This document shows, piece after piece, positions 26,136 through 63,502 of a stretch of 64,000 nucleotides of DNA. The translations under genes and the position numbers were made by a program. The notes below the pieces were generated by a model. The model saw only the letters and a program-made list of their open reading frames with translations, was not told the origin of the DNA and ran no database searches. The DNA lies in the IMG/VR virus record IMGVR_UViG_3300020202_000063, positions 34,579-98,578 of that record. One strand, 5' to 3'. Source of the DNA: a virus. Every line of letters begins with the position of its first letter. The first letter of the stretch is position 1.

Positions 26136-26745
26136 AAAACCTATTGGTAAAATAGACCCCGCTATAAATTCGAAAACGCCAGAACGGATTTTTAAAGATT
26201 TTTTGAAAACTTTTTGAAGGGGGTAGGGGGGGGCTGGTGAGTATAATTGAATGGGGAAACCCTAATAGGAAACATAACCCGCCTATAAATCAGAAAACGA
26301 TTAAAAAGTAATCCTATTATTTTTCGTAGAGGTGTAGGGATAGTACCCCCCCGGTCGGCCCAATCGCAAGTCATTTGCAAAAATCCATAAATGGGGTACG
26401 GGGTTCTTTTACATATGTTTTACATAGGGTTGGCATAACGTATGCCCGACAAATATCATGCCAATGCAATCTGACCTTATGCAATTAGGTAATCCACCCT
26501 ATGTGACCCATGATATTGCATAACACGTGCAAATCGTTTCCTAATGTCATTGCGTGCGTTTAAAGGCGATTCGTTTCTGGCCTATAGCAAGGTAGTGGGT
26601 TTTCTATTGCGTTGCGTAACCTCTTGGGGCCTGGGAACTTACGAAAGCATAGGGTGTTTGCCTTTCGTGCGTTTAAACCCAAGCAAACGGGGTCGTTTTT
26701 GCCTATGTTTGGCGATTGCATACGGGGTCGGAATGCGCACAAATG
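26136..26745. other. Non-coding strand-convergence zone; candidate genome terminus/packaging site
   Basis: No credible ORF; GGGGGTAGGGGGGG and TACCCCCCCGG runs; copies of the 16-bp palindrome. Confidence 0.45.
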
Positions 26746-26746
26746 G

Positions 26747-26774
26747 AAAAGGCGCACCCGATGAAAGGTGCGCC
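26747..26774 (-). terminator. Rho-independent terminator (copy 1)
   Basis: GGCGCACC-TTTCATCG-GGTGCGCC-TTTT on minus strand. Confidence 0.75.
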
Positions 26775-26799
26775 CCATGTGTTAACCCTTGGTTTCGCT

Positions 26800-26943
26800 C
26801 TAGGGGAAAGCCTTTGCCCAAAATTCGCGCGCCGATTTGTGGAATGCCTTTGCTTCGTCTGCGGACTGTGCACCAATGAGAGCGAACAAAGCTTGCGACA
26901 TTGCCGCATTAGCGAACGCGTCTTGCGTGACTTGGTTTTTCAT
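26800..26943 (-). CDS. 47-aa hypothetical protein (not in ORF track)
   Basis: MKNQVTQDAFANAAMSQALFALIGAQSADEAKAFHKSAREFWAKAFP fills the gap before the terminator. Confidence 0.55.
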   Translation of the reverse strand: MKNQVTQDAFANAAMSQALFALIGAQSADEAKAFHKSAREFWAKAFP

Positions 26944-29508: not shown

Positions 29509-29952
29509 TTAGAAATCAATTCGGTTTGAAATCTGCGCGCTCGACATTTGTGGGATTTGCACTTGGCCCAAATAGCGCCGAATCCAATTTTCGAAATGCG
29601 TATGCATGGCCGCAAGCATGTTCGAAAGTTGAGCGGTCGAATAACCGCCGAAATGCGCGCGCCGTTCGCCCCATGTGCTATCAGTCACGAAATCCGAAAA
29701 AATGTACCAAGCACGGTCATCGGGATTAGCGCGACCGTCATTCCAGACGTTGCCAATGCAACCGAAAGTAAGGTGATTAATGGAATAGCGCCGCGCGTAA
29801 AGTTCCATCAATTCGCGAATGGCCCTTTGTGGGTTTTGCGCATCGGAATAGCGCGACATTTCCTGATTCAAAGGCGCGAACGGAAGGTTCCCAAAGCGCC
29901 GCATCGACTCGTGACGTTCTGCCTCAATCTCTTCGTTGGATAGGTTACTCAT
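29509..29952 (-). CDS. Hypothetical early protein
   Basis: Preceded by palindrome-linked promoter. Confidence 0.65.
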   Translation of the reverse strand: MSNLSNEEIEAERHESMRRFGNLPFAPLNQEMSRYSDAQNPQRAIRELMELYARRYSINHLTFGCIGNVWNDGRANPDDRAWYIFSDFVTDSTWGERRAHFGGYSTAQLSNMLAAMHTHFENWIRRYLGQVQIPQMSSAQISNRIDF

Positions 29953-30009
29953 GGGAACCCCACTATATCACATAATAATCGGAATACAATGGGGTATTTC
30001 CCTCAATTG

Positions 30010-30165
30010 TTATGGTTTGTAATCCAATATGCTGCACGAGCCACCGTGACGCTTTACCGAATCGTAACGCGCGAATGCTTCCGTCAACGAATTTGTGTAT
30101 TCGGTTCCTGATATCATCATGCCGCGCTGATGCCGATAGGAATAATGCACGACGTATTTGAACAT
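30010..30165 (-). CDS. Small hypothetical protein
   Basis: Start at MFKYVVH. Confidence 0.5.
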   Translation of the reverse strand: MFKYVVHYSYRHQRGMMISGTEYTNSLTEAFARYDSVKRHGGSCSILDYKP

Positions 30166-30185
30166 GGTAAAAAAAGGATTAGTTT

Positions 30186-30665
30186 TTAATGGTCGCCAGC
30201 GGGACCGGCCCGGTATCCAATCGATTCGATTTTGTAAAGGTCGCCCTGAACATGCGTGATAGTCGATTCGACGGCGCAAAAAAATTGGATTGCGTCTTTT
30301 ATCTTTTCGACTGTTGTGCCAGCAGGCATTTCCGACAATTTCCTATAGCAATAGATTGGCGCTTTCCAATCATCCCGATTGCAAACCGAATCAAAAATTG
30401 GCCTCAATTCCTCGCGCTGTTTTTCCAATTTGTTTTTATAGGAAACGATTTCGATTTCGGGATTGAGCGCATTTTTCAGTTCGCGCATCCGGCTGATAAC
30501 GTCACCAGTCGCAATCCAATCTTTCCGCGACCCATCAGATTCGACGCCCGAAAACTTGGGCGAGTGCAAAAACGCAATAAACAAATCCAATTCGGACTCG
30601 GCATTCTTAAGCGCTTTTGAAAGCGCCGCGACTTCGTTTTCGAGTTGCTTAATATAGTTGCTCAT
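30186..30665 (-). CDS. Hypothetical early protein
   Basis: Palindrome-linked promoter. Confidence 0.65.
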   Translation of the reverse strand: MSNYIKQLENEVAALSKALKNAESELDLFIAFLHSPKFSGVESDGSRKDWIATGDVISRMRELKNALNPEIEIVSYKNKLEKQREELRPIFDSVCNRDDWKAPIYCYRKLSEMPAGTTVEKIKDAIQFFCAVESTITHVQGDLYKIESIGYRAGPAGDH

Positions 30666-30712
30666 GGCGAAAACACTATATCACAAAGCCGCGAGACTGT
30701 ATATGGGTAGAA

Positions 30713-30919
30713 TTACGTATTGTAAACGGGTTCGAATTTCGTTTTGTCTGGTAGATTTTTCAATGGGCGCAAACCATCGTGAGCGCGCGCATGATTATAA
30801 TCCCAAAGCGCATTTTCCTCTTTTGTTTCAAGTGTGCTTTCACGAGCATTCGTTTTGAATTCGCTCATGTCGCGCGTAGGCGGCACCGTTACTTTCCAAT
30901 ATTTAATTTCGGATTGCAT
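30713..30919 (-). CDS. Hypothetical protein
   Basis: Start MQSEIK; stop inside palindrome. Confidence 0.55.
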   Translation of the reverse strand: MQSEIKYWKVTVPPTRDMSEFKTNARESTLETKEENALWDYNHARAHDGLRPLKNLPDKTKFEPVYNT

Positions 30920-30920
30920 T

Positions 30921-31157
30921 TTAGTCGAGAAATGCGGGAAAGATTTCGCGGTCCGGTTCGCCCGTTTCGGGATAACACATGGCGCGGTCAATCAATTCCT
31001 CTTTTGCCGCTTCAATCTCCACCGGAGTCATCGCCCGATTCGTTTCAAAATTCGAAACAAACGGGATTCCATTTTCGAATGTGACGCGCGCCGAAACGAT
31101 TGCTTCGACAATATTTTCGCGACCGGATTCCAGATAGATTGTTTTGGTGAATTTCAT
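30921..31157 (-). CDS. Hypothetical protein (leaderless)
   Basis: ATG 6 nt after TATTCT. Confidence 0.65.
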   Translation of the reverse strand: MKFTKTIYLESGRENIVEAIVSARVTFENGIPFVSNFETNRAMTPVEIEAAKEELIDRAMCYPETGEPDREIFPAFLD

Positions 31158-31205
31158 GGCGGCAGAATAACAAAGATTGGAATGGATTACAATAGGGTGT
31201 TGACC

Positions 31206-31352
31206 CTATTTATATGTAATAATGCGCTTTTCTGAGTTGATTCGCGCGCTAAATCCAATCATATTGTCGAAAAACTTGAGCGCGACCCACGCCAGCAGGA
31301 CGCAGATAACGACCCATAAAACGAATTCGTAAAAGGATGGAAATTTGCGCAT
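31206..31352 (-). CDS. 48-aa membrane peptide (not in ORF track)
   Basis: MRKFPSFYEFVLWVVICVLLAWVALKFF...; TAG stop is the palindrome arm. Confidence 0.5.
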   Translation of the reverse strand: MRKFPSFYEFVLWVVICVLLAWVALKFFDNMIGFSARINSEKRIITYK

Positions 31353-31422
31353 GGGGAACGATTTGTTTCATGGCGCGACTAGAATACAATCTCTCGAATT
31401 GTATTACAATAGGGTGAAACCC

Positions 31423-31704
31423 TCAATTTACCAACATATCGACATAAAAACAACGACGATTGAATTCCATTACAGTCGCATCGAACAATGACGCAATCCG
31501 TTCCTGATTTGTCGTTTTCGTTTGAAGATAAACAGTTCCAAAGCCGCGCAGGGCGCTTTCCCGCTTTGACTCATTCGTCATAACGGATTTGTTTCCCATC
31601 GCCTCACGGAAACGCAACAGTTCCTCCATGAAATAACGTTCGGAAAAATCCGTTTCGTTTTGAATTACGCTACTTTGCATTTGGGTTTTGTTCTTGTGCT
31701 CCAT
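31423..31704 (-). CDS. Hypothetical protein
   Basis: Stop coincides with palindrome end. Confidence 0.55.
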   Translation of the reverse strand: MEHKNKTQMQSSVIQNETDFSERYFMEELLRFREAMGNKSVMTNESKRESALRGFGTVYLQTKTTNQERIASLFDATVMEFNRRCFYVDMLVN

Positions 31705-31922
31705 CGAGACCCCTTAAGGGAGTCCATTTTGTATTTTTCGATACACTTTGCGCAAATTTCGTGGCTTACCTCATATCCACAAGTCTCGAAATAGTCTGTA
31801 GCCGCTTGCTTATCCGCGCAGTAAAAGCAAACTACCGCCATTTTATCAGGGCGAATCTCGATAGTGGACTTAAAAACCATTTGGTTTATTTGGCGAATTT
31901 GGGATAGGGTTTTCCATCCCAA
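31665..31922 (-). CDS. Hypothetical zinc-finger-like protein
   Basis: CFYC..SHEICAKC; true start probably MVFKST. Confidence 0.5.
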   Translation of the reverse strand: MGWKTLSQIRQINQMVFKSTIEIRPDKMAVVCFYCADKQAATDYFETCGYEVSHEICAKCIEKYKMDSLKGSRWSTRTKPKCKVA

Positions 31923-32107
31923 TTTGTTTGATGGGGTAAAGCCGCGCGACCATATCTATTTAGATAATTCCGATTGGCTTTTCTATCCTGTTTGATTTTG
32001 TCTTTGCGGCGCTGTGGTCCACCAAAAGCGCCACAGTTCCCGCGTACCCGTGGTCGCACGAACAAACGAGAATAGGTCCACGGATTTGGGTCGTAAATCA
32101 CAGTCAT
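31886..32107 (-). CDS. Basic hypothetical protein
   Basis: ATGA-coupled ORF. Confidence 0.45.
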   Translation of the reverse strand: MTVIYDPNPWTYSRLFVRPRVRGNCGAFGGPQRRKDKIKQDRKANRNYLNRYGRAALPHQTNWDGKPYPKFAK

Positions 32108-32442
32108 GGCAGTAATAAAAGTAGATTGTTTTTCTTCTCAATATCCTGCATGAAACGGTGTGTCGCAACATCGCGCGCCAAACGGCGGCGCTCCATTGCG
32201 TTTAGAAGATGCGATGTGGTGGCGCTCGATTCCATTTCGATTTCTGGCTCAGTAATGGAAGGAGCAACGTCGCGAATCTCTTCGTCAACGATATTCGAAT
32301 CGTCAATTCGCGTACCGATGCGCGAAAGAACGATTTGTTTTTCCTTCTTATTTTCGACCGGACTGATGCGAAGCGCTGAAAGGTCTTTGCCTTGCAGCGC
32401 GGCCCAACGATTGCGAATCAGGGTAGAGGTGACATGAATCAT
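32104..32442 (-). CDS. Hypothetical protein
   Basis: Start MIHVTS 9 nt after -10 box. Confidence 0.55.
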   Translation of the reverse strand: MIHVTSTLIRNRWAALQGKDLSALRISPVENKKEKQIVLSRIGTRIDDSNIVDEEIRDVAPSITEPEIEMESSATTSHLLNAMERRRLARDVATHRFMQDIEKKNNLLLLLP

Positions 32443-32498
32443 GGCGTGCGAACAATAACATACCCCATTGTGCAATACAATAGGGTGTTATACTCATT

Positions 32499-32981
32499 TT
32501 ATACCGCAATGCGCGAATTGGGATATTTCGCTTCAATCCAATCTTTCGCCGATTTCAAATCCCAGCCGGTAATGGTGCGGAACTCCTTGATGGCACCAAG
32601 CTTATTTGTGTATGGATTACCAATGCGACTTTCGATATACCGCCTGATATCGTCCGTCGAAATGGAGACTGATTCCAGCGGCATCGGACCGCGCCGAACG
32701 AGAAAGAGCCGCAAGAGTTGATTGGCGCTCGCATCAGGAGAAGATTGCAAACGCAGCCGTTCACACTCGCGCGACATGCCAAGCAAATCCGCCCGCAGCC
32801 CACGCTCAGTCATTTCCAAATCCGAAATACGCTTGAGCAATTTCTGATTGGCTTCTTGCAAAAGTTCAATTGGAACAGATGCGTTAATCGAAACGGTTTC
32901 ACCCGGTCGAATGTTGTAGAAACGGCCAACGATAATCGCGGCTTCCGAAACGGTCAGAATGATGTTGCGCAGGATTTTCAT
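32499..32981 (-). CDS. Protein with C-terminal ribosomal L7/L12-like domain
   Basis: NKLGAIKEFRTITGWDLKSAKDWIE resembles bL12 KxxxIKxVRxxTGLGLKEAKDLVE. Confidence 0.7.
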   Translation of the reverse strand: MKILRNIILTVSEAAIIVGRFYNIRPGETVSINASVPIELLQEANQKLLKRISDLEMTERGLRADLLGMSRECERLRLQSSPDASANQLLRLFLVRRGPMPLESVSISTDDIRRYIESRIGNPYTNKLGAIKEFRTITGWDLKSAKDWIEAKYPNSRIAV

Positions 32982-33060
32982 AAAATCAGTTAGATTTGGT
33001 TAGAATTGAGTGGAAGAGACGAAAATATAACAGATTGGCGCAGAATTACAATAGGGTGAA

Positions 33061-33366
33061 TTACTTAATTTGGTCTGGATTGCACACGAGCGCATTGCCC
33101 GCAATCCAATCGGTCAACATGCCGCCCGCATCATGCAAGAGAGCCGTCGCAGTCTTGTTCATGGGAAGATTTTCCAATTTGCCTTCCTCATGAATGACCA
33201 TGATGCGACCATCCTTCAATTCGATTGTTTGGATAAAGCCGCCCACGGCGCTTTGCATTTCTTCCAAAGAAAAATCAGTTCCATTTGCCGGGACGACGCA
33301 GAGTGAAGATTTCTGATTGGGAAAAATCAGATAGGCGGCGGCACCTTGAGCGGATTTGTTTTTCAT
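33061..33366 (-). CDS. DUF3846-family protein
   Basis: LEEMQSAVGGFIQ..IHEEGKL..LPMN..AT..IAGNALV. Confidence 0.8.
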   Translation of the reverse strand: MKNKSAQGAAAYLIFPNQKSSLCVVPANGTDFSLEEMQSAVGGFIQTIELKDGRIMVIHEEGKLENLPMNKTATALLHDAGGMLTDWIAGNALVCNPDQIK

Positions 33367-33415
33367 GATGTCGAATATAACAGATAAAAGATTGAAATGG
33401 AATAGGGTGAATTAC

Positions 33416-33616
33416 TTATTTTTCGATTGCTCTCCACCAGATTAGACCATGCGTGCGACCATCAAAGCAGCCACCATCGTGATTTTCGCGCTTGGCTTGT
33501 CGGATGGCATCACGTTTAGTGCGCGCATAATATGAATTGAAATAACTCCAGTCGGCAGTGCGCCTACCAAATTGAGTTTTCACCTCCACGTCGAAAGTTT
33601 TTAAATCTGAATCCAT
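33416..33616 (-). CDS. Hypothetical protein
   Basis: Stop at palindrome end. Confidence 0.6.
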   Translation of the reverse strand: MDSDLKTFDVEVKTQFGRRTADWSYFNSYYARTKRDAIRQAKRENHDGGCFDGRTHGLIWWRAIEK

Positions 33617-33802
33617 TTAGTAAATGCGCGTGAGACCGTTGTGTGGAATGAATTCGTATTTCTTTTTCCCGTCGAGTGATTCAAGAGTGTAGATATCGGG
33701 CATGCCATCCTTCACCGCGCGCACGCCCACAACCCGCAGTTGCAGGAAGCCAACCTGAACCGTCTGTCCTACGGACCAGTTTTGTTTGGTGCGAGTAATC
33801 AT
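33617..33802 (-). CDS. Hypothetical protein (leaderless)
   Basis: ATG 6 nt after TATAGT. Confidence 0.65.
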   Translation of the reverse strand: MITRTKQNWSVGQTVQVGFLQLRVVGVRAVKDGMPDIYTLESLDGKKKYEFIPHNGLTRIY

Positions 33803-33850
33803 AAGAGAACTATAGCAGATGGCCCGTCGCTATGCAATAGGGTAAATACC

Positions 33851-33952
33851 TCAATTACAATGTTTCCACGATTCCCCTCGGGCAATTCTTCTAACCTGAC
33901 TGGCACCAATTCCAAATCTATTTATTAGGTCGCTTACAGAACCCGGCCCACG
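33851..33952 (-). pseudogene. Remnant C-terminal HTH of an HNH-type endonuclease
   Basis: Startless frame ..LINRFGIGASQVRRIARGESWKHCN*. Confidence 0.5.
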
Positions 33953-34860
33953 CTAGGTTTTCTCACTTTGTAAATTATTGCAATCCCTTTTGGTGGAGGA
34001 ATCGGTGGGATGAATTGCCATTGCCCCTTCATATTGACATACCGCTCATCTTTGTAAAAACGGATTGTTCCTGCGCGGCCCAAAAACTGTCTGGTTTTTC
34101 CTGAGCTATCGTGAGCCACCTCAACCTTCTCGCGATAGACGTGCGGCAGATAACGAACCGAATAGATTTTTTGCGTCGCTTTGATGTGTTTTGGGTGAAG
34201 ACCCGCCTCTTTCTTTTCGGCTTTCGTTGTGAGAAGCTTTGGACCTAGCTGTGGCACGCTCGCAAAAGCGAGAACTTTGACTGCCAGCATGGTCATATAC
34301 CGCATCATTTCAGCTTCGTCATTCTCCATTGTCTGGTCGAATTGAGTGAACGCATTCATATGTTCATTGTACTGCCCTTGAACATATTTCGGCCAAATCG
34401 AATCAGGAATTGAGAGAGTGAGTGTTGCGCCGTCCTTTGCATCAGCCGCAAAAACAACCCCAGCATCAGGCACAACCTCGCCATTTTCCATCAGTTGCCC
34501 TTTATCCACCCGTCCCACAAGCATGGCAGGCAAATCCGGGTCGGCAAAGCGAATCTCCATCGCACGCGCGGGAAATACAATCTTGTTTAATTCGCCCACA
34601 ACCTTCGTGATTTCCAAATCCAAAGACACACGATGGTCCACAATCAGGAGAACATTGCCGCTTAAAATCTGATTGGCTTTGATGTAATTGCCAACAGCGG
34701 TCGGCCCCTTTAAGTGTTCAGTGAGTCGTACCGTCTCCATCAAAACACCAATTGGTGCCTCGCGCAAATCAACCCCCTCATAAACCCAATTGATTTCTCG
34801 CCGCATATGCGGAAGATAGGCGGGGCGTTCAACTGAAACAATTTTGACTTTGTTATCCAT
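33934..34860 (-). CDS. Hypothetical early protein
   Basis: 308 aa; palindrome-linked promoter. Confidence 0.7.
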   Translation of the reverse strand: MDNKVKIVSVERPAYLPHMRREINWVYEGVDLREAPIGVLMETVRLTEHLKGPTAVGNYIKANQILSGNVLLIVDHRVSLDLEITKVVGELNKIVFPARAMEIRFADPDLPAMLVGRVDKGQLMENGEVVPDAGVVFAADAKDGATLTLSIPDSIWPKYVQGQYNEHMNAFTQFDQTMENDEAEMMRYMTMLAVKVLAFASVPQLGPKLLTTKAEKKEAGLHPKHIKATQKIYSVRYLPHVYREKVEVAHDSSGKTRQFLGRAGTIRFYKDERYVNMKGQWQFIPPIPPPKGIAIIYKVRKPSVGRVL

Positions 34861-34914
34861 TACGCGACTAGAATAACAGAATCGACGTTATATTACAATA
34901 GGGTGATTACCTCA

Positions 34915-34952
34915 AAAACAAAAGCCGCCCTAGTTTTTATAACCAGAGCGGC
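34915..34952 (-). terminator. Rho-independent terminator
   Basis: GCCGCTCTGGTT...AACTAGGGCGGC followed by TTTGTTTTT on minus strand. Confidence 0.65.
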
Positions 34953-34987
34953 CTTGCCATGTCATCGACCGTTACGCCGAATAATTT

Positions 34988-35464
34988 TTAGCTTGCTGCC
35001 GCGAGTGGTGCCGGGGCGTTTGCCTCGGGCATCGTGGTGACATTGGCAGGCGCAGCAGGTGCTTCCTGCTTTGCCGTGCGAGTGTTGACAAGGCCCGCTT
35101 TCTTCAGCCAATTGTGCAATGTCTGCGGATGGCAACGAAGTTCCGCGATGATTTGTGAACGCTGCTTGGTGCCATTACGAACCGCCTCGATAGCGGCATT
35201 GCGTTCCGCTTCAGAAAACTCCGTGCGCGGGCGCTTGTCGGCAGCGAGTGCGCCAAGCGTGCCCTTTTCGCGTTGGGCAATCAAAGCTCGCACGCCCGCG
35301 AGATTGTCAACGCCGAAAATCTTCGGCAGTTCGTCGATTTTCTTTCCAATCGTTTCATAATGTTCGCGCTCGGTCTTTTCGATTTCGGCGCGAGTCTCTG
35401 TCATTTCACGTTGCAAACGAGCAAGACGCTCGGCGGGGGTCTCTGACTTATTGGTTTTAGACAT
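34988..35464 (-). CDS. Coiled-coil + HTH DNA-binding protein (paralogue A)
   Basis: N-terminal coiled coil, ELPKIFG, C-terminal HTH ending HNWLKKAGLV. Confidence 0.7.
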   Translation of the reverse strand: MSKTNKSETPAERLARLQREMTETRAEIEKTEREHYETIGKKIDELPKIFGVDNLAGVRALIAQREKGTLGALAADKRPRTEFSEAERNAAIEAVRNGTKQRSQIIAELRCHPQTLHNWLKKAGLVNTRTAKQEAPAAPANVTTMPEANAPAPLAAAS

Positions 35465-35508
35465 AATGCTGGTTGAGTTGAAGTTCCTATTTCACTTACA
35501 ACCCTATA

Positions 35509-35670
35509 TTATTGTTTCGGATTGTCGAGTATTTTCTTATAGGGACTATTACCTATAAGCTTATTGATGGACCATTCCAAACGACGAAACTGCCAAGCAA
35601 GTGAGTTGCTATTATACTTGCGCTTCTTTGTCGGGACGCTAACACTCATTCTCTTTTTATTTGCGGCCAT
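35509..35670 (-). CDS. 53-aa basic protein (not in ORF track)
   Basis: MAANKKRMSVSVPTKKRKYNSNSLAWQFRRLEW... Confidence 0.45.
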   Translation of the reverse strand: MAANKKRMSVSVPTKKRKYNSNSLAWQFRRLEWSINKLIGNSPYKKILDNPKQ

Positions 35671-35708
35671 ATTATTTATGAGTTAAAACGACAAATGTTT
35701 TAAAAAAA

Positions 35709-36032
35709 TCTAGGGGCCGAATCGCACGGCCCTCACTTTTAATTTAGTACGTTCGCCGCTTGGTAGTGTCACACCCTGCGTATCGAACGGGGTTCTCGTC
35801 TCACTTCTTAATTCCTTGCTGCGTCCAGCCCGGTCAGTTCTAGAAACTAATCCCGCTTTGACGTAAAACCCAATTTCACTTTTCGTTTATATCCGGTAGC
35901 ATCTAATTGGAACTTCTCAGCCTAAAACGAAATGGTTTATCACCATCTCGCTCTGGTCCCACTTCAAACGTTTCCGTTTGATTATTGCCGTCAGGCAAAG
36001 GGATTGCGGCTCCATCCCGATTAACCACACCG
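35709..36032 (-). ncRNA. Candidate ~325-nt structured ncRNA with tRNA-like 3' domain
   Basis: No ORF; consecutive hairpins including GNRA loop; terminal GGGCCG-TGCGATT-CGGCCC T-arm stacked on TCTAG/CTAGA. Confidence 0.65.
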
Positions 36033-36057
36033 AAAATTTGAAAGAACAAAAATTAAT

Positions 36058-36186
36058 TTAGGCGGCTTTCTTTAGTCCGACATAATCGACATACACCTTG
36101 CCGTCACGCTTTCGAGCGGCGCGGCCCTTAAGCTGATGCCGATTCATTCCAGACTGTTTCCGCATTTTCTTACCAGTTGCATTCAT
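36058..36186 (-). CDS. 42-aa highly basic peptide (not in ORF track)
   Basis: MNATGKKMRKQSGMNRHQLKGRAARKRDGKVYVDYVGLKKAA downstream of palindrome promoter 36239. Confidence 0.6.
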   Translation of the reverse strand: MNATGKKMRKQSGMNRHQLKGRAARKRDGKVYVDYVGLKKAA

Positions 36187-36247
36187 GATGTTTTAAGTTG
36201 AGGTTGGAACTATATCAGAAAGCTCATTCGAAATGCAATACGTACTA

Positions 36248-36496
36248 TTACGTATTTTCTATCTCCGCCCTATACATTTCGATTGAATTGGGAAAGCGGG
36301 TCGCCAGCCAATTGAGACTGGTGCGGTCCGTCATTTCCCAATTGATTTCAGCTAATGGACATGGAGTGGAGTTATTATAGGAAAATGCCGTGCGATAGAT
36401 TTGGATAATCGTTAGTCGCTGTTCGGCACTTAGACCATTATTCCACCAGTTCAGAATATTTTTATTGCGGATGGCACGAGAGAGGGTCTGGGGCAT
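36248..36496 (-). CDS. Hypothetical protein
   Basis: TTGACG-N17-TACAGT promoter; start MPQTLS. Confidence 0.55.
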   Translation of the reverse strand: MPQTLSRAIRNKNILNWWNNGLSAEQRLTIIQIYRTAFSYNNSTPCPLAEINWEMTDRTSLNWLATRFPNSIEMYRAEIENT

Positions 36497-36555
36497 AGGG
36501 TGTGCACTGTAGGGAAATTTCCCATCCCCCGTCAAGCAATTTCTGATGCACCCGA

Positions 36556-36795
36556 TTAGAGTTTTACGTAATCGCCACCAACTAGCAATAATTCAATCTG
36601 ATTGCTTTTTAAGTTGCCCCGTCGCACCGTTTTGAACGCGAAAATCTTGCCAGTTTTTTTCCAATCTGGTTGATTGATGGCATCTTGCGCAAGGTACGTG
36701 CGACCCTTGAAAAAAGTGATGGCGCGGCTATCCCCAGTCGTCAGTCCTTGTGCAACTAGACTGCGACACATGCGAATTTTAAAATAACCATTCAT
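36556..36795 (-). CDS. Hypothetical protein
   Basis: ATGA-coupled ORF. Confidence 0.55.
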   Translation of the reverse strand: MNGYFKIRMCRSLVAQGLTTGDSRAITFFKGRTYLAQDAINQPDWKKTGKIFAFKTVRRGNLKSNQIELLLVGGDYVKL

Positions 36796-37100
36796 GACGT
36801 GACTATATCCTCCGGATGAAGTTTGTTATGATTTTCGGCGCTTGTCCTTGTATGTTTCGCCGCATTTAATAGCTGATTTGCCATACTCTCAGCCTCGTCG
36901 GGTGTCATTTCCAAAACCAATTTTTCATCGGGATGCCCCGTGCGATATGCGTCAATCCACATGGAAACACGCATGCGCAATTTGTCTGTTTCTTGACGGG
37001 TCAGCCACGCGCGGCTGATTCCCCCTCCCACCCTGAAACCACCAATACTATGGACGGGCGCATTGGAACGAGTCGGGTCTCGTGATAGTATGAATCTCAT
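36792..37100 (-). CDS. Hypothetical protein (leaderless)
   Basis: ATG 7 nt after TATACT. Confidence 0.65.
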   Translation of the reverse strand: MRFILSRDPTRSNAPVHSIGGFRVGGGISRAWLTRQETDKLRMRVSMWIDAYRTGHPDEKLVLEMTPDEAESMANQLLNAAKHTRTSAENHNKLHPEDIVTS

Positions 37101-37130
37101 AAAAAGGAGTATACTCGAATGCGGGCGCTA

Positions 37131-37970
37131 TTACAATAGGGACATTTCCTCAATTCGCTCGCTGCGGATAATCAAATCTTCTATTTCGTCATCAGTATAT
37201 CCACGGTCTTTCTGGAATTCAGCCTTCCAACTGATATCGCCATCACCATCCCGATAGATGGAAAATTCAATCCCTCTATAATGGTTTGCCTTTTCTTCGG
37301 CAGGATTGCGCTTGCAAAAAGTATTCCAAAAGCGAATGAAATTGTTAAGTACCTGATGATTATTGCAGTTATGCGGTACTAGCCTTTGCGCCATCCGAAA
37401 GCCATAGCGGTGCAAGTCTGCAATACGGCGGAAGGTGCAACTCTGCTTATATTCCAATCCAATTTCACAACTTTCTTTTTCGTGTTTACCGGGTTGGAAA
37501 GCGCGAACCCTTTTTGTGTACTCTTCCACCACCCATTCCAATTCGCAGTCGTCAACGGGCGCTTGCCTTGGAACACTGGAAACTAGGCGGTCGCCAAATT
37601 GCGTATATCCATCTTCAATCGCCTCTTGAACAAAACTGATTGTGGTGCCGATTACATCACTTCCATTCAGGTAATCCCTGATTTGCCGATTAATAATCCG
37701 TTCACGAATTCCCAACACGCTATAATAGTACCACATTGCACCCATCGCGGCCATTTCGCCGCCCACATTCATGGCTGCATCACCCCTGAAATACTTATCG
37801 GTATGTTCGTGGGCGTGCTCAAACACATCGTGGAAGATGCCAACCCCATCCCAAAAGGCATTAAACGAATTATGTTCGTTATAGGTTTCCTTGTGAGTCA
37901 AGCCCCATTCACCGTTGGCGTCATCCTGAAAGAAAACCAGATTGACTTTGCGAACTAGGTTTTTTGGCAT
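37131..37970 (-). CDS. Hypothetical protein, possible HxxxEH metal site (leaderless)
   Basis: FHDVFEH; ATG 6 nt after TATAGT. Confidence 0.7.
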   Translation of the reverse strand: MPKNLVRKVNLVFFQDDANGEWGLTHKETYNEHNSFNAFWDGVGIFHDVFEHAHEHTDKYFRGDAAMNVGGEMAAMGAMWYYYSVLGIRERIINRQIRDYLNGSDVIGTTISFVQEAIEDGYTQFGDRLVSSVPRQAPVDDCELEWVVEEYTKRVRAFQPGKHEKESCEIGLEYKQSCTFRRIADLHRYGFRMAQRLVPHNCNNHQVLNNFIRFWNTFCKRNPAEEKANHYRGIEFSIYRDGDGDISWKAEFQKDRGYTDDEIEDLIIRSERIEEMSLL

Positions 37971-38011
37971 GGCGCGACTATAACATAACGAGTCGCACTA
38001 TACAATAGGGA

Positions 38012-38212
38012 CTATTCCTTATTTACGGGTAGAACGGTCGCCGTCTTTTCATCCGTATCGATTTCGATATTGACGTATTCGCCATATTCGAAAAATTTTT
38101 CCAACGTCGCCTCCGCTTGTTTCATTTCCTTTTCATTGAGAGGTGAGCATAGTCCGTCACCGTGATAAACAGATTTATCCGGGTCTTTGAATGTGACGAT
38201 GTATTTTGGCAT
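38012..38212 (-). CDS. Hypothetical protein
   Basis: Start MPKYIV; stop inside palindrome. Confidence 0.6.
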   Translation of the reverse strand: MPKYIVTFKDPDKSVYHGDGLCSPLNEKEMKQAEATLEKFFEYGEYVNIEIDTDEKTATVLPVNKE

Positions 38213-38217
38213 GGCTG

Positions 38218-38508
38218 TTAAATTTTTTTCCAACCCATCATTGCACATTGATAAGCCGCCGCTTTGACCTCGGGAGCGCCCCAAACCATATCCACGTCAC
38301 CCATTTCGAGGATGATAACAATATCCCCTACCGACATGGAACGAAGATTCTCTTCTCGAATGAATTCGGTCCGGTCAACATGATTGCATTGACGAAAAAC
38401 AAATTCGAGAATATCTTTATCTGATTTGTTTTGCATCTCTTCGGTTAGCGGAAACACAAATAGATTATCCGAACCGAAAGCGAGGTATTGGATGATGACC
38501 TTTTTCAT
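38218..38508 (-). CDS. YodL-like domain protein (leaderless)
   Basis: LEFVFRQCN..RSMSVGDIVII..Y.C..GW. Confidence 0.6.
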   Translation of the reverse strand: MKKVIIQYLAFGSDNLFVFPLTEEMQNKSDKDILEFVFRQCNHVDRTEFIREENLRSMSVGDIVIILEMGDVDMVWGAPEVKAAAYQCAMMGWKKI

Positions 38509-38613
38509 GCCGCTACTATATCAGGTGCGCCATCGCAATACAATAGGGAGGATTACCTATTTTTAATTGCAGAAAGACTGCATAAGTTATGAACACCTTC
38601 ATAATATGAGATT

Positions 38614-39006
38614 ATGAAGTGTGTGAAGTGCAATCAGGATTTAATAGGAAAACAGACTAAGTTTTGTTCCGCTAAATGTAAAGCCAGTCAGCAAAACAAT
38701 TGTTATCCTAAACAGAAGATTCGAGCGTTCAAAAGAAAAGCAGAGGTGGTGACTCGATTAGGTGGAAAGTGCTCCGTTTGTGGTTATAACAAAAATTATG
38801 CCGTTTTAAACTTTCATCATACCGAACCTCAAAATAAACTGTTTAATTTAGACTCGCGCAAGCTATCCAATTCCTCTTGGGATAGGATAGAGTTAGAACT
38901 GCAAAAGGTAATCCTATTATGCGCCAATTGTCATATGGAAATACATCATCCCGATTCAGAAATAGTGGGCGGAGTGGGATTCGAACCCACGGTCCAAGAA
39001 TTATGA
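38614..39006 (+). CDS. HNH endonuclease
   Basis: CVKC..FCS..C zinc finger; GGKCSVCGY..FHH..LLCANCHMEIH. Confidence 0.85.
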   Translation: MKCVKCNQDLIGKQTKFCSAKCKASQQNNCYPKQKIRAFKRKAEVVTRLGGKCSVCGYNKNYAVLNFHHTEPQNKLFNLDSRKLSNSSWDRIELELQKVILLCANCHMEIHHPDSEIVGGVGFEPTVQEL

Positions 39007-39039
39007 GTTCTTCGCTTTGAACCACTAAGCTACCCGCCC
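38966..39039 (-). tRNA. tRNA with CAT anticodon (Ile2 or elongator Met); CCA not encoded
   Basis: GGGCGGG TA GCTT AGTGGTTCA AAGC G AAGAA CTCATAA TTCTT GGACC GTGGG TTCGAAT CCCAC TCCGCCC A. Confidence 0.92.
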
Positions 39040-39045
39040 AAAAGA

Positions 39046-39261
39046 TTAGGTTTTAAGTATACCCACGGTTTTGCGGATGTGCGCTATCGCATATTCCATA
39101 CAATCCAGAATCGATTTTGCGCTTTCTGGTTTCTTGATAAGCGCTTTTCGCAATTGTATTATATCGTAAACGGTAGATGGTAATGAATGACACCCACTGT
39201 AAGTATCCCGTATGCGGATAGCCTCCTCAACTATTTCATTTGCCCGTTCTAAGTGTGTCAT
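39046..39261 (-). CDS. Hypothetical protein
   Basis: 71 aa ORF between two RNA genes. Confidence 0.55.
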   Translation of the reverse strand: MTHLERANEIVEEAIRIRDTYSGCHSLPSTVYDIIQLRKALIKKPESAKSILDCMEYAIAHIRKTVGILKT

Positions 39262-39268
39262 TTAAAAT

Positions 39269-39497
39269 TGGTGGGCTGCAAGGGATTCTCACCCCTAACC
39301 TTTCGTTACCACACCAGCCACGGTGGGGGCTTTCGGCCCGATATAACGACTGCTCTGTTTCCGGTTCTGTGGTTTCACTTTCGGCTTTGGCAAAACCTAA
39401 TTGTATTTTCCACATCCGGCCCCTTCTCTACTAAATCGCTTGTATGCGCACTTAATCGCGAAGATTCGAGTTGGGTTTATCTTGAGCTAGCGCGCCC
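39269..39497 (-). ncRNA. 229-nt tRNA-scaffold RNA with large D-loop and anticodon-loop insertions
   Basis: GGGCGCGC-TA-GCTC...GAGC-AG-TCGTTA...TAACGA-AAGGTT-AGGGG-TGAGAAT-CCCTT-GCAGCCC-A-CCA. Confidence 0.8.
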
Positions 39498-39503
39498 GTA
39501 AAA

Positions 39504-39770
39504 TCAAATTGCCTTTTCCAAATCTTCAAACGTGGAACCCAACGTACCCCAATTACAGTAGGTGGCAACCCCAACTTCCGTCTTCTCATCACCACCCATC
39601 GGACCCCAAATCTGCAATATTATAACGCCTTTTGCTCCCGCCCAAAATTCGAATTGGATTTCTGGGGCATTGGGATTCTTATCCTGAACAACCCGAATGA
39701 TTTGATAATTCTTACCCAATAGGATGTCTCGCATCCGAACATAAACACGATTCTTGAATTTATCGTTCAT
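39504..39770 (-). CDS. Hypothetical protein
   Basis: ATGA-coupled ORF. Confidence 0.6.
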   Translation of the reverse strand: MNDKFKNRVYVRMRDILLGKNYQIIRVVQDKNPNAPEIQFEFWAGAKGVIILQIWGPMGGDEKTEVGVATYCNWGTLGSTFEDLEKAI

Positions 39771-40024
39771 GTTATAAATTCAAACAATTTTGGGCGCGAG
39801 TTGAACTTTGCCACTTGCACCAACTCGCTCCCCGCATCACGAACAATACAACCGCTATTATCGACCTCGGCTGTATCGTCGTTCAGAACGAGATAAAGCA
39901 GATGGGTTTTATCACTACGTGGCACTCGCGGCAATTTGTTCATCGCCTCGACAAATGACACTTTGCTTGATGCCCACTCGCCAGCGGAGACAGCGAGGAA
40001 TGTTTTCTTAATCGGTTTATTCAT
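39767..40024 (-). CDS. Hypothetical protein
   Basis: Palindrome-linked promoter at 40063. Confidence 0.6.
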   Translation of the reverse strand: MNKPIKKTFLAVSAGEWASSKVSFVEAMNKLPRVPRSDKTHLLYLVLNDDTAEVDNSGCIVRDAGSELVQVAKFNSRPKLFEFIT

Positions 40025-40080
40025 GACACCCACGTTATAACATGTGTCGCGCCAGAATACAATAGGGTATATACCTTAAT

Positions 40081-40332
40081 TTAAGCCGCCAAACGCACTG
40101 AATTAGCATCCCATTTTTCCTGCCACATTCCGGGGGCGAGATGATTGAAATTCAGAGCAATATCCATTCTGATATTTTCGGCGCTCTCAAATTTATCCCG
40201 ATGCAGGATTTTCTCAATCACATGCAAAATATTATTCGCCTCAAATTCCCATTCATTCCCATGTATTAAGACTCTACACAAGAACGGTTTGGGTTTGGTG
40301 GGCGACTCACTGAGTGATAGTATTTTGCTCAC
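40081..40332 (-). CDS. Hypothetical protein
   Basis: Ends in RLAA. Confidence 0.55.
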   Translation of the reverse strand: MSKILSLSESPTKPKPFLCRVLIHGNEWEFEANNILHVIEKILHRDKFESAENIRMDIALNFNHLAPGMWQEKWDANSVRLAA

Positions 40333-40609
40333 GCAACACAGTCGATTTCATTGCCGCGCGAACGTCAAGCAAAATCTGCTTTGCATTCTCGTGCGCATCA
40401 GCATGGCCGCTCATGTATTTTGCCTCGGAAACATACCCTTGAGATTCAAAATTATCCGACAAGCGCTGACTACTGCTGCGCCAAATTTCTAATTGTTTGG
40501 TCGCAGCTTCGATGAACAAATCCACTTCGCTTTTCTGAGGGGTCGGCTGAGAAAGCGCAAGAGATGCAAGCACGCAAAAAACCATGAGGTGGAATCGATT
40601 AGTTTTCAT
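40307..40609 (-). CDS. Hypothetical exported protein (leaderless)
   Basis: Signal peptide-like N-terminus; palindrome promoter 40647. Confidence 0.6.
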   Translation of the reverse strand: MKTNRFHLMVFCVLASLALSQPTPQKSEVDLFIEAATKQLEIWRSSSQRLSDNFESQGYVSEAKYMSGHADAHENAKQILLDVRAAMKSTVLREQNTITQ

Positions 40610-40761
40610 GCGCGCGAGGCTAGTCCATTTGTTTGTGGTTTGTCAATAGGGTCTTATACCTATTTTTGGGGTCGAAAAAAAGATTGGTTTTTAAGGTTTG
40701 GGGTCGTTTGTTTTATTCATTAATATGCCGCATAGTATACCGATTATAATCAGGATTAGTA

Positions 40762-41457: not shown

Positions 41458-41672
41458 GTCCCTACCATACCATATGAAATCGAAATGTCAAGTACCTATC
41501 GGAGAATTTCTTATGGGGAGTAATACCTATTCCGAAAGGCGAAAAATCTGATTGCTTTTTAGCGCAAAAACTGATTGGATTAGCCGCCAGTTGGGGAATT
41601 TTCCCCACCCCGCTCGGGGCGCACGCGTATATTTTGGGACGCGATTTTAAAAAAAAATATTCTAAAAAAATT

Positions 41673-42475: not shown

Positions 42476-42545
42476 CCCAAATCAAATTAACCAACCTTCT
42501 CCAACCTTCTCCAACCTTATCTCTTCCTTATTCTTCCTTCCCTAT

Positions 42546-42812
42546 CTATACTTCCTCTATCTTACTACCGCTATTATTCTCTTCTGTTTCTGGTTCGTTG
42601 GGGGACACATGATTTAACACTCGTATAGTGTTATAAACAGTTAATCCACAGCTAATTACACAAAAGAAAAGCAGGACGAAAAAGCGGGCTGGATTCTCCT
42701 GAGAAACAGTGTGTAACAACCCCATAATGGTCGCTCCAAACATGAGTGAAAAGTACACCGAAAAGAACACATGATTCTCTATTTTATTGGCGCTTGAGAC
42801 AGTTTGACACAT
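42546..42812 (-). CDS. Membrane protein
   Basis: Two TM helices. Confidence 0.55.
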   Translation of the reverse strand: MCQTVSSANKIENHVFFSVYFSLMFGATIMGLLHTVSQENPARFFVLLFFCVISCGLTVYNTIRVLNHVSPNEPETEENNSGSKIEEV

Positions 42813-50397: not shown

Positions 50398-50883
50398 TTA
50401 CTTGCGAGCACGAACAAGGCCCGCACCCTTCTTGATGTTTTGCGCGGTTGGAGCGGAGATATTCCACTTGGCGCAAATGTCGTCTTTAGACAACTTGCCG
50501 CCACGGAAATCTTCCACGATTTTGGCCCGCATCTCGGGTGTGATAGTGACACGAGCCTTGCGGTTGGACCGACGCGCTTGCGCGTTGCGTGCGCCGTTCG
50601 TGCGATTGGTGACGGATGCGCGACCCCGATTATTACCGAGCACATTACCGATTCCGTGAACTTCCACAAAATTGCGGACGAATTCCGAACTATCGGTATA
50701 ACCAAGACGCTGCGGCAGTTCCTTCAATTCCTGCATACGCGCAGCCTGAATTTCCTGCGCCAAGGTCGCCTCACGCTGACGGAGTTGTTCAAATTCTTGA
50801 ACTTTTGCAGCTACAGAATTGAACGAAACGGCGGGCATAGATGCCCCCGTGGGAGTGTTAACATTAGCGGTTGCGGTACTCAT
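50398..50883 (-). CDS. Coiled-coil + HTH DNA-binding protein (paralogue B)
   Basis: ELKELPQRLGY..RVTITPEMRAKI..NISAPTAQNIKKGAGLV. Confidence 0.75.
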   Translation of the reverse strand: MSTATANVNTPTGASMPAVSFNSVAAKVQEFEQLRQREATLAQEIQAARMQELKELPQRLGYTDSSEFVRNFVEVHGIGNVLGNNRGRASVTNRTNGARNAQARRSNRKARVTITPEMRAKIVEDFRGGKLSKDDICAKWNISAPTAQNIKKGAGLVRARK

Positions 50884-62355: not shown

Positions 62356-62838
62356 TTACGCTGCGGTACGGTATTCGGCCAAACCCACCTTATCGATGCC
62401 GTACATGAAATTGATTCGCGATACCTTATCCATAAAAGATTGGACTAATTCTGCCGCTTTTGATTCAACCGCACACTCGTCCCTAATGGGAAGTTTAATG
62501 TCTTCAACATGTTCGTAGGTAAACGGCTCAACGAGATTATTTATAATTACCTGCGCCCTATAGTAGTCCGTTAGTGCTTTCGTAAGGTTTTCTGCTGTCG
62601 TGCACACATAATAAATGCTGCCCAACCCCAAACTAGATAACTTCGTTCTCTTCGAAAGTCCAAAATTCCTAACAAGATTTTGGCATCGTCTTATAAAATC
62701 GTAATCTCCTTTAAAACCGAGGGCAATCCCTTTCCCGTAGGAACTAATTAGAAATTCGCCTGTTTCTTCTTCAAGTTTAATATATTTGACATTATTTTCA
62801 GTCATATGTGAGTCGCATGAACTGGTCGGTCCATACAA
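62356..62838 (-). CDS. Hypothetical protein
   Basis: Start probably MTENNV. Confidence 0.6.
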   Translation of the reverse strand: MYGPTSSCDSHMTENNVKYIKLEEETGEFLISSYGKGIALGFKGDYDFIRRCQNLVRNFGLSKRTKLSSLGLGSIYYVCTTAENLTKALTDYYRAQVIINNLVEPFTYEHVEDIKLPIRDECAVESKAAELVQSFMDKVSRINFMYGIDKVGLAEYRTAA

Positions 62839-62847
62839 CCGATTTAA

Positions 62848-63105
62848 TCAGGCAACCCTATAACATTTTAAAGCCCTTTCGAAAGCTTTAAAATTGGTAT
62901 CAGGGTCCAATGGGTGCTCCAACAGGTGTTCTTCTCCCGTTACATCCTTAAACTTATCCCTGAACTCGATTTCAAGTTTATCGGGCATCTTTTCACCCTC
63001 TGGCTCAAGTATATACCCGAAAAAATTGCTGGCTAGATTGGCCCACAAATCAACTTCTGGTGTTTGAGTCAGAGTATAATCACTTATTTTATATACCTTA
63101 ATCAT
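62848..63105 (-). CDS. Hypothetical protein
   Basis: 85 aa ORF. Confidence 0.6.
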   Translation of the reverse strand: MIKVYKISDYTLTQTPEVDLWANLASNFFGYILEPEGEKMPDKLEIEFRDKFKDVTGEEHLLEHPLDPDTNFKAFERALKCYRVA

Positions 63106-63111
63106 TTGTTT

Positions 63112-63324
63112 TTAACCGGCGGTATCGTGTAGCAACTTTTTCAAGTTTGCAATACGTTTTTTAGAACCGAAAAGTAGATTGGCGGTTTCCACCGACAAAC
63201 CCTCGTCATTATATACGTGGCCGTTAGTAACGGCCCAATTTAACCACTTACCAAGAAGAATGATAGATGAACTGTCATTCCTCTGAACCTTCCGCGCTTT
63301 CTTGATATCCGATTGTTTTTCCAT
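63112..63324 (-). CDS. Hypothetical protein
   Basis: 70 aa ORF. Confidence 0.5.
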   Translation of the reverse strand: MEKQSDIKKARKVQRNDSSSIILLGKWLNWAVTNGHVYNDEGLSVETANLLFGSKKRIANLKKLLHDTAG

Positions 63325-63502
63325 GTTTGTCGAGATTGTAATTTATTCTAGCGCGTATCTCGGCAATTTTCTTACGTGTTTTCTGTCGCAGACTTGTGAG
63401 TTCTTTTGATTCACGTTTTAGACGCTTCAATATGAATTTTTCCCGTAGTAGCTCTTGCGAGAGAAATTCCAGTGTATCGATAACGTCTTTCTTTTGGTCC
63501 AC
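63275..63502 (-). CDS. Basic coiled-coil hypothetical protein
   Basis: GTG start after GTGTAATATAATAC motif. Confidence 0.5.
   Translation of the reverse strand: MDQKKDVIDTLEFLSQELLREKFILKRLKRESKELTSLRQKTRKKIAEIRARINYNLDKHGKTIGYQESAEGSEE

Follow-up and report, generated by a model that had tools for sequence, protein, structure and literature searches.

A control unit repeated in front of small phage genes

Why should one palindrome stand in front of gene after gene within a single block of a phage genome? The question is raised by IMG/VR virus record IMGVR_UViG_3300020202_000063 (G000), a sequence of 98,578 bp that is approximately 70% complete and has a guanine plus cytosine (GC) content of 44.6%. 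We analyzed the last 64 kb of this record (positions 34,579 to 98,578), a stretch of 64,000 nucleotides that is referred to below as the window and is numbered from its own first letter. On the minus strand between positions 29,950 and 40,664, 13 canonical and 2 variant copies of one control unit accompany approximately 15 small genes. Comparison with related phages indicates that these units are a real, conserved promoter-operator regulon heading apparently near-leaderless gene cassettes. The palindrome, or box, is probably the operator of one sequence-specific and probably dimeric protein, fused in fixed register to a host-polymerase promoter across a regulon of 13-15 units.

The palindrome is a 20 bp imperfect one, AATAGGG-N6-CCCTATT, whose final TT forms the first bases of the -35 hexamer, and an A-rich stretch (AAAT) precedes it. 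Aligned on the -35 hexamer, the units yield the consensus aaAT-T[AG][AG]G[GT]-N6-(A)CCCTA/TTGTAW-N17-(TGn)TATAGT-N6-9-ATG. The -35 hexamer is TTGTAT or TTGTAA in 10 of the 13 canonical units, the spacer is 16-18 bp long (17 bp in 10 units), and TGn precedes the -10 hexamer in 10 units, which makes these extended -10 promoters. The -10 hexamer begins 22-25 nt past the box (23 nt in most cases), and in 12 of the 13 units an ATG follows it after 6-9 nt; the exception is unit 33051, with a leader of 42 nt. In most units, the upstream gene has its stop codon within the box or no more than 7 nt from it. A first-pass annotation, made from the letters of the window alone, had described several of these traits (the promoter-close ATG, the TTGTA(A/T) hexamers and the stops in or near the palindrome), as well as the perfect palindrome at 31191-31210 and the sequence TAGTCGCG(CC/TA)ATG common to three cassettes (units 38005, 31409 and 34898), and all of them are borne out here. 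The canonical units are as follows.

Unit 1, 40607..40664, minus strand: palindrome AATAGGTATAAGACCCTATT; -35 TTGACA; spacer 18 bp; -10 TAGCCT; 7 nt; ATG at 40609 of a 100-aa open reading frame (ORF)
Unit 2, 40022..40080, minus strand: box TAAGGTATATACCCTA; -35 TTGTAT; spacer 17 bp with TGT; -10 TATAAC; 9 nt; ATG at 40024, 85 aa
Unit 3, 38506..38561, minus strand: box TAGGTAATCCTCCCTA; -35 TTGTAT; spacer 17 bp with TGA; -10 TATAGT; 6 nt; ATG at 38508, 96 aa
Unit 4, 37968..38023, minus strand: box TAAGGAATAGTCCCTA with the upstream stop TAG inside it; -35 TTGTAT; TGT-TATAGT; 6 nt; ATG at 37970, 279 aa
Unit 5, 37098..37154, minus strand: box TGAGGAAATGTCCCTA; -35 TTGTAA, the TAA of which is the upstream stop; -10 TATACT; 7 nt; ATG at 37100, 102 aa
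Unit 6, 34858..34916, minus strand: box TGAGGTAATCACCCTA; -35 TTGTAA; TGT-TATTCT; 9 nt; ATG at 34860, 308 aa
Unit 7, 33800..33855, minus strand: box TGAGGTATTTACCCTA; -35 TTGCAT; TGC-TATAGT; 6 nt; ATG at 33802, 61 aa
Unit 8, 33364..33420, minus strand: box TAAGTAATTCACCCTA, the TAA of which is the upstream stop; -35 TTCCAT; TGT-TATATT; 7 nt; ATG at 33366, DUF3846 protein of 101 aa
Unit 9, 32979..33069, minus strand: 16-mer box identical to that of unit 8; -35 TTGTAA; spacer 16 bp; TGT-TATATT; 42-nt leader; ATG at 32981, 160 aa; the only canonical unit with a leader
Unit 10, 32440..32498, minus strand: box TGAGTATAACACCCTA; -35 TTGTAT; TGT-TATTGT; 9 nt; ATG at 32442, 112 aa
Unit 11, 31369..31427, minus strand: box TGAGGGTTTCACCCTA, the TGA of which is the upstream stop; -35 TTGTAA; -10 TATTCT; 9 nt; ATG at 31371
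Unit 12, 31155..31210, minus strand: perfect palindrome AATAGGGTCAACACCCTATT; -35 TTGTAA; TGT-TATTCT; 6 nt; ATG at 31157, 78 aa
Unit 13, 29950..30007, minus strand: box TGAGGGAAATACCCCA; -35 TTGTAT; spacer 16 bp; TGA-TATAGT; 9 nt; ATG at 29952, 147 aa

The box of unit 6 directly follows a strong terminator (34955-34921). In unit 11, the promoter-close ATG at 31371 opens an ORF of 40 codons only, and a membrane-like ORF of 48 aa starts 19 nt downstream at 31352; the latter is the likelier of the two to be the real gene.

The two halves of the box are not equally conserved. CCCTA makes up the promoter-proximal half in 11 of 12 units, and the distal half (TRRGK) varies without compensation. The T-R-R of the distal half can also serve the upstream gene as its stop, which helps to explain the degeneracy: a stop falls exactly on it in 2 of the 13 units here and in 9 of 25 units of a related phage, G001, which is described below.

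Copy number and confinement of the box

The repeat is far too frequent to be a product of base composition. The pattern TRRGKN6YCCYATT has 16 matches in the window where 0.15 are expected (none of 100 shuffles reached 16), and 13 of the 16 are minus-strand sites within 29988-40662. The stricter pattern TRRGKN6CCCTA has 17 matches in the 98.6-kb record, compared with 1.3 in shuffled sequence. The first-pass annotation had called for a motif scan of the whole genome, and a position weight matrix run over the record places sites only in the array: the 13 training sites score 27-37 bits and nothing elsewhere exceeds 14.6 bits. As the matrix was trained on these same 13 sites, the scan speaks for confinement only, and canonical units are accordingly confined to a 10.7-kb stretch, with none elsewhere in the record.

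The annotation had also counted 16 copies. The repeat itself stands and the count does not, since the copies comprise the 13 canonical units, two promoter-linked variants (36238 and 30703), one promoterless box (35555) and one lone box on the plus strand (26486). These copies, together with a box-like site upstream of the DUF7227 gene, are listed here.

Variant unit, 36184..36256, minus strand: a different perfect palindrome, AATACGT-N6-ACGTATT (36237-36256), in the same register; -35 TTGCAT; spacer 18 bp; TGA-TATAGT; 22-nt leader; ATG at 36186
Degenerate or hybrid unit, 30663..30721, minus strand: AATACGTAATTCTACCCATA, with AATACGT on the left and ACCCATA on the right (30702-30721); -35 TATACA; TGA-TATAGT; 9 nt; ATG at 30665, 159 aa
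Promoterless box, 35540..35555, minus strand: TAGGTAATAGTCCCTA; no recognizable promoter behind it; upstream of a helix-turn-helix (HTH)-like gene of 158 aa (34988-35464)
Distal box-like site, 41464..41529, minus strand: TAGGTATTACTCCCCA; the DUF7227 gene's box-free promoter (TTGACA-N16-TATGGT-6 nt-ATG) follows 22 nt downstream
Lone canonical box, 26486..26501, plus strand: TAGGTAATCCACCCTA; no -35 or -10 hexamer in register; at the far end of the array, in the gap between a minus-strand gene (26192-26380) and a plus-strand gene (26544-26879)

The palindromes of the AATACGT type may represent a second operator specificity, or a decay of the first.

Conservation of the box in related phages

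Relatives were collected through homologues of the DUF7227 gene, which gave 80 IMG/VR loci with the box in only one of them (G001), and with the composite DNA pattern, which recovered G002 and G003; the exact promoter pattern gave a single chance match in IMG/VR, in an unrelated contig of 31% GC. In these three phages, at 36-47% capsid identity, the box TAGGG-N6-CCCTA marks an equivalent ORFan block. G001 (205,168 bp, complete with terminal repeats, 52.5% GC) has 21 forward matches to TRRGKN6CCCTA, all within 17-56 kb (control 1/1); G002 (190,671 bp, complete, 53% GC) has approximately 28 boxes in a block that spans the terminus; and G003 (191,387 bp, 55% GC) has approximately 15. The structural and replication genes of G000 are syntenic with those of the relatives at 30-65% identity. 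In an unbiased scan of all palindromes of the form 5-mer-Nx-5-mer, TAGGG-N6-CCCTA ranks first both in G002 (18 copies, 0.2 expected) and in G003 (8 copies, 0.21 expected).

The register is conserved together with the letters. Under a strict promoter filter, the box stands in register with a -35 hexamer, a -10 hexamer and an ATG 11-16 times each in G001 and G002, which have approximately 27-29 boxes each. The order and spacing of these units (box, -35, TGn, -10, RTG) are those of G000 and the -35 hexamers differ, being TAGACA, TATACA or TTGAAT in G001 and TTGAAA or TTGCGC in G002, compared with TTGTAW in G000. The -10 hexamer is TAGAGT or TATACT, followed by ATG or GTG within 6-9 nt. The homologue of the unit 3 gene in G001 is likewise the first gene after a box.

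In G003 the arrangement is different again: a perfect distal box often lies 23 bp, or about two helical turns, ahead of a degenerate copy adjoining the -35 hexamer (TCGACA or TTGCAT), as at 112881, 117527 and 115994. The pairing suggests cooperative occupancy. The distal site ahead of the DUF7227 gene in G000 has the same placement, and together with the pairs of G003 it marks the box as a module separable from the core promoter. This bears on the proposal that the box is an intrinsic promoter element, akin to an UP element or an extended -35, which the host RNA polymerase holoenzyme reads directly with no separate factor. Such a reading would account for a box that abuts and overlaps the -35 hexamer, for the A-rich AAAT ahead of it and for a search that turned up no phage regulator. 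However, UP elements are A/T-rich and not dyad-symmetric, whereas in G002 and G003 the box is perfectly palindromic and contains G/C; it is detached from the -35 hexamer, or approximately 23 bp upstream of it, in G003 and at 41513, 35555 and 26486; and some 20 strong box-free promoters per genome indicate that the polymerase does not need it. We therefore regard an intrinsic element as distinctly unlikely.

The box is absent from two complete relatives, G005 and G006 (36% GC, with a capsid identity like that of G001), and from three partial relatives; the 5-mer palindrome scan found no alternative palindrome at a comparable count in them. Five further fragments that bear the capsid gene are uninformative on the presence of the box. 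In the capsid tree, the box-bearing genomes occupy three deep branches and the box-free genomes form one well-supported clade of low GC. Since the box-free genomes are a single clade of this kind, the box system is either ancestral and lost there, or tied to a host group.

The box as a probable operator

What kind of molecule would preserve these letters? The hairpins that the palindrome could form in RNA are weak in G000 (mean -2.7 kcal/mol, with several at 0), and this matters for the view that the palindrome, folded into a hairpin in read-through transcripts, terminates, attenuates or stabilizes them or marks processing between cistrons. That the upstream gene often ends in or beside the box would suit such a role, as would the moderately stable hairpins of G002 (mean -5.4 kcal/mol) and the fact that the stem-loops of the PeSL cassettes of T4-type phages are terminators. 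But half of the sites in the window fold at 0 to -1.5 kcal/mol with no U-tract, changes in the left half are uncompensated, the true terminators of the array are separate and much stronger hairpins (34955-34921, 35732-35714 and 29404-29377), and an RNA role would not require a fixed distance to the -35 hexamer. An RNA-level element is thus very improbable. The letters of the box are kept despite a capsid identity of 36-47% and a difference of 10% in GC, which argues for a DNA site read by a protein. Taken together, the conservation of sequence rather than pairing, the weak hairpins and the fixed register point to an operator for a dimeric DNA-binding factor. The regulon of one dimeric factor acting just upstream of the -35 hexamer, which the first-pass annotation had proposed, is well supported by this comparison, as box and register recur in G001 and G002 and the box is the top palindrome in G002 and G003.

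If the ATG is the transcription start, the 20-bp site would span approximately -53 to -34, with its centre near -43.5; it would share its last two bases with the -35 hexamer and have the geometry of a class II-type activator site. The promoter itself would be of the sigma-70 type with an extended -10, used by the host RNA polymerase. No RNA polymerase or sigma family was matched by Pfam among the conserved core proteins scanned, and this result, along with the DnaE, DnaB, primase and tape-measure/GpJ tail genes of these phages, makes the host polymerase the likely enzyme. In this scheme the 13-15 units would be switched together, so that the small, fast-evolving genes form one temporal class, presumably an early one, apart from a box-free TTGACA class.

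The direction of the switch is less clear than its existence. Activation, or class-specific recruitment, by the box factor has in our view a chance just short of even, and shut-off repression is a doubtful second. We lean towards activation because the -35 hexamers of the box promoters are weaker than those of the box-free promoters and because the strong box of G003 lies about two helical turns further upstream. In phage phi29, the same upstream protein, p4, activates weak promoters and represses strong ones, a precedent by which the sign of regulation may go either way.

Candidate readers of the box

Which protein might read the box? The proteins conserved in all box-bearing genomes include PhoH, lysozyme, Hsp20, YopX, DUF4326, glycosyltransferases, GDP-mannose dehydratase, DnaB and primase, and also a PD-(D/E)XK nuclease, PHP/DnaE, HNH and LAGLIDADG endonucleases, the tape measure protein, GpJ and several proteins without a family. 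A syntenic module upstream of the array in the box-bearing genomes encodes proteins of 148, 80, 160 and 371 aa and a lysozyme; the 371-aa protein is amidoligase-like.

Syntenic module: window 62356-63502; G001 198.7-201.1 kb and 7.5-9.9 kb; G002 17.1-23.6 kb

G005 and G006, which lack the box, yielded no member of the 148-, 80- and 371-aa families, and a sequence search found no relatives of the 148- and 160-aa families in the PDB.

The first-pass annotation had put forward two HTH paralogues of the window as candidate binders (34988-35464 and 50398-50883, minus strand). Each combines a coiled coil at the N-terminus with a weak HTH at the C-terminus (HTH_Tnp_1/HTH_29-like), and the first of them follows the promoterless box. 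Their sole homologue among the relatives is a 517-aa protein of G003; as there is none in G001 or G002, two of the three box-bearing relatives, the paralogues were rejected as the reader shared by these phages. Pfam, run on a pool of 47 further ORFs, gave no HTH or ribbon-helix-helix family. It is possible that the reader is a small, fast-evolving phage protein, a protein encoded in the 30% that the record lacks, or a factor of the host.

Several observations weigh against the operator. No clear regulator was found by Pfam among approximately 90 ORFs of the record or among the proteins conserved in box-bearing genomes, and the structural model of the 148-aa family is of low confidence (predicted local distance difference test score 66) with no fold match. 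A generic sigma-70 scan finds no enrichment in the region (27 promoters, 25.9 expected), from which it follows that the signal lies in the invariant composite and not in the quality of the hexamers. Promoters with TTG and an extended -10 might be strong without any factor. The half-sites are consistently unequal, unlike an ideal homodimer site, and the left-half TRR may in part be mere stop codons (9 of 25 units in G001, 2 of 13 here).

A more specific version of the operator reading, which we offer tentatively and think rather unlikely, is that the factor travels with the phage lineage as an unrecognized phage protein that may enter with the DNA or be expressed from the box-free TTGACA promoters. 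It would switch on, and later perhaps hold down, the leaderless extended -10 class, and would constitute an independently invented MotA-like switch in a new family of large phages of siphovirus type, with hosts that do without Shine-Dalgarno sequences and leaders. The same lineage-borne protein could gate read-through between cassettes, as its site overlaps the stops of the upstream genes.

Exchange of cassettes

Could the repeats instead serve recombination? The first-pass annotation had suggested that palindrome and promoter form the joint of an integron-like array. In the form that resembles PeSL cassettes, these units would supply short homology by which self-expressing ORFan cassettes are inserted, deleted and shuffled with no integrase. 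The block is rich in ORFans, and only approximately 10 of its genes have homologues in G001, in a different order, among them the 308-aa protein of unit 6 (54% identical); G002 has individual cassettes in common with it here and there, two identical 18-bp repeats (33418 and 33067) enclose the DUF3846 cassette, and T4-type phages provide a precedent, mini-circles included (PMC2839356, PMC4122927). The shuffled order of the cassettes shared by G000 and G001 is compatible with a recombination joint without being specific to one.

On the other hand, identity between any two units does not exceed 16-18 bp, and the spacer of the box is compositionally constrained, so that identical 16-mers are expected now and then. 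The relatives can be compared only at 35-55% protein identity, which is too distant to place breakpoints, and when box positions are compared in G002 and G017, the one near-identical pair of genomes found, all 28 mapped boxes keep a constant spacing. No attC was found and no integrase family is among the approximately 90 ORFs scanned by Pfam, the record being approximately 70% complete. Each cassette has its own promoter at the 5' end, unlike the promoterless cassettes of integrons with their attC sites and common promoter Pc. The integron-like joint therefore has no direct support: the repeats share at most 18 bp, integrase and attC are missing from what was scanned, and the spacing in G002 and G017 does not move. 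A box kept letter for letter, in fixed register, at 36-47% capsid identity needs a sequence-specific reader, and a recombination role cannot account for it. Mobile cassettes are thus unlikely as the explanation of the box, and shuffling at the units is plausible as a by-product.

Predicted leaderless starts and two promoter classes

The proximity of promoter and start codon extends beyond the array. A box-free class of promoters, TTGAC(A/T)-N16-18-TAnnnT-N6-10-ATG, occurs approximately 20 times per genome in G002, G003, G005 and G006. In the window, the genes at 36496, 41457 and 43707 have box-free TTGAC(A/G) promoters that pass the filter on the distance from -10 to ATG, and those at 54590 and 62299 have TTGAC close upstream of the ATG. 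The statement that palindrome-free promoters use TTGAC(A/G), which the annotation had made for 36496, 54590 and 62299, thus agrees with the filter for the first gene and with the position of TTGAC for the other two.

As judged from the distance between the -10 hexamer and the ATG, the mRNA that carries the first gene of each unit is probably leaderless, or nearly so, when translated. No enrichment of Shine-Dalgarno sequences was seen upstream of genes in any of six genomes. Since promoter-close starts and the lack of Shine-Dalgarno enrichment are found throughout the family, the predicted leaderless habit is not special to the cassettes. Presumably it reflects the hosts of these phages, which, if the predicted starts are right, must translate leaderless mRNAs without a Shine-Dalgarno sequence efficiently. 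What is special to the array, as far as the promoter sequences tell, is the second class, which combines the box, a weaker -35 hexamer and TGn.

Comparison with known phage systems

The system appears to be a new variant of phage regulatory cassettes that are already known, and its nearest counterparts in the literature are the PeSL cassettes of T4-type phages (RB49/phi1, T4/PST and KVP40/nt-1), in which a stem-loop terminator and an early promoter mediate modular shuffling and form mini-circles (PMC2839356, PMC4122927). In both cases small ORFan genes stand behind a recurring combination of inverted repeat and sigma-70-type promoter, within a variable, ORFan-rich block of a large lytic phage, and relatives have the genes of this block in shuffled form; at the sequence level, the likeness extends to a sigma-70-like promoter in each repeat (TTGTAW-N17-(TGn)TATAGT in the 13 units). 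The PeSL stem-loops, however, are stable polyG/polyC terminators kept as structure, whereas the hairpin here is weak and is kept as sequence. In addition, the palindrome overlaps the -35 hexamer by 2 bp and the mRNA is predicted to be leaderless, and the phage, with its tape-measure/GpJ tail and DnaE polymerase, is not T4-like.

The geometry of the unit recalls class II activator sites. CRP and FNR bind such sites at -41.5, lambda cI acts from OR2 on PRM, and Mu Mor acts at Pm on a dyad centred at -43.5. As in these promoters, a suboptimal -35 hexamer is combined with a good -10 hexamer, and a dyad site of 16-22 bp reaches up to or into the former; the 5-N6-5 geometry of the box is identical to that of the CRP core, TGTGA-N6-TCACA. 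Unlike CRP and FNR sites, the box would be centred approximately 2 bp further upstream (if transcription starts at the ATG) and has unequal half-sites. The promoters here also carry TGn and may not need activation, and no activator candidate emerged from Pfam, a PDB sequence search or one fold.

The stoperators of Cluster A mycobacteriophages are asymmetric 13-bp sites at which the monomeric immunity repressor of these temperate phages blocks elongation (PMC9283540, PMC6550527). Like the boxes, they occur in tens of copies, in one orientation, and in very short gaps between genes, where they overlap stop and start codons. The box differs in being dyad-symmetric and locked to a promoter, and no repressor, integrase or lysogeny module was seen here.

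The middle promoters of T4 offer a further parallel. The MotA box is asymmetric, is centred at -30 and replaces the -35 hexamer. In both systems an extra upstream box and a normal sigma-70 -10 hexamer define a class distinct from the consensus early promoters. Here, in contrast, the box extends as far as -36/-34, the promoter retains a -35-like hexamer, and no MotA or AsiA family is among the Pfam matches.

The array offers a testable regulon in an uncultured phage family, with one site of 16-20 bp, 13-30 promoters per genome and two promoter classes, and it yields specific predictions on where transcripts start, on a protein that binds the box and on when each class is expressed. A whole phage family that relies on leaderless, Shine-Dalgarno-free expression would also constrain its possible hosts. 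If the factor is encoded by the phage, it would be a new transcription switch, and the unit a compact and portable promoter/operator part; if it is encoded by the host, the box would be a handle for assigning hosts to these metagenomic phages.

Genome context of the array

The plus strand holds the structural genes, and from approximately 27 kb to the end of the window nearly all genes lie on the minus strand. Recognized proteins include rIIA and rIIB, PhoH, Hsp20, YopX, DUF932, DUF3846 and DUF7227; a tape-measure protein, a GpJ-like tail tip, a DnaE-type polymerase III alpha subunit with PHP, DnaB, primase and a PD-(D/E)XK nuclease were seen via the relatives. The array is ORFan-rich, with only 2 of 20 scanned ORFs, both of them DUFs, above the Pfam curated cut-off.

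No cultured close relative of G000 was found: megablast of the array against 50,697 phage records and tblastn with the capsid-like, DUF932 and 308-aa proteins gave no match, and an rIIA search gave matches of at most 29% identity. An identical DUF7227 protein is encoded on a contig of 179.6 kb. Homologues of the capsid protein occur on small contigs binned to metagenome-assembled genomes of Bdellovibrio and Thiobacillus, in which a search for box enrichment found none, and Hsp20 gave only weak matches as a clue to the host.

The sole RNA recognized by Rfam between 26 and 43 kb is a tRNA-Met (38965-39039, minus strand), and an HNH-endonuclease-like ORF on the plus strand (38614-39006), within the array, overlaps the 3' part of its gene. 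Within the array, the stretches 35709-36048 and 39269-39497 (minus strand) contain no ORF and gave no match to Rfam at E <= 0.01. Beyond the array, short non-coding, purine-rich direct repeats (GGAAGGAAGAATAAGGAAGAGATAAGGTTGGAGAAGGTTGGAGAAGGTTGG, minus strand) occupy 42480-42560, just upstream of the ORF at 42475.

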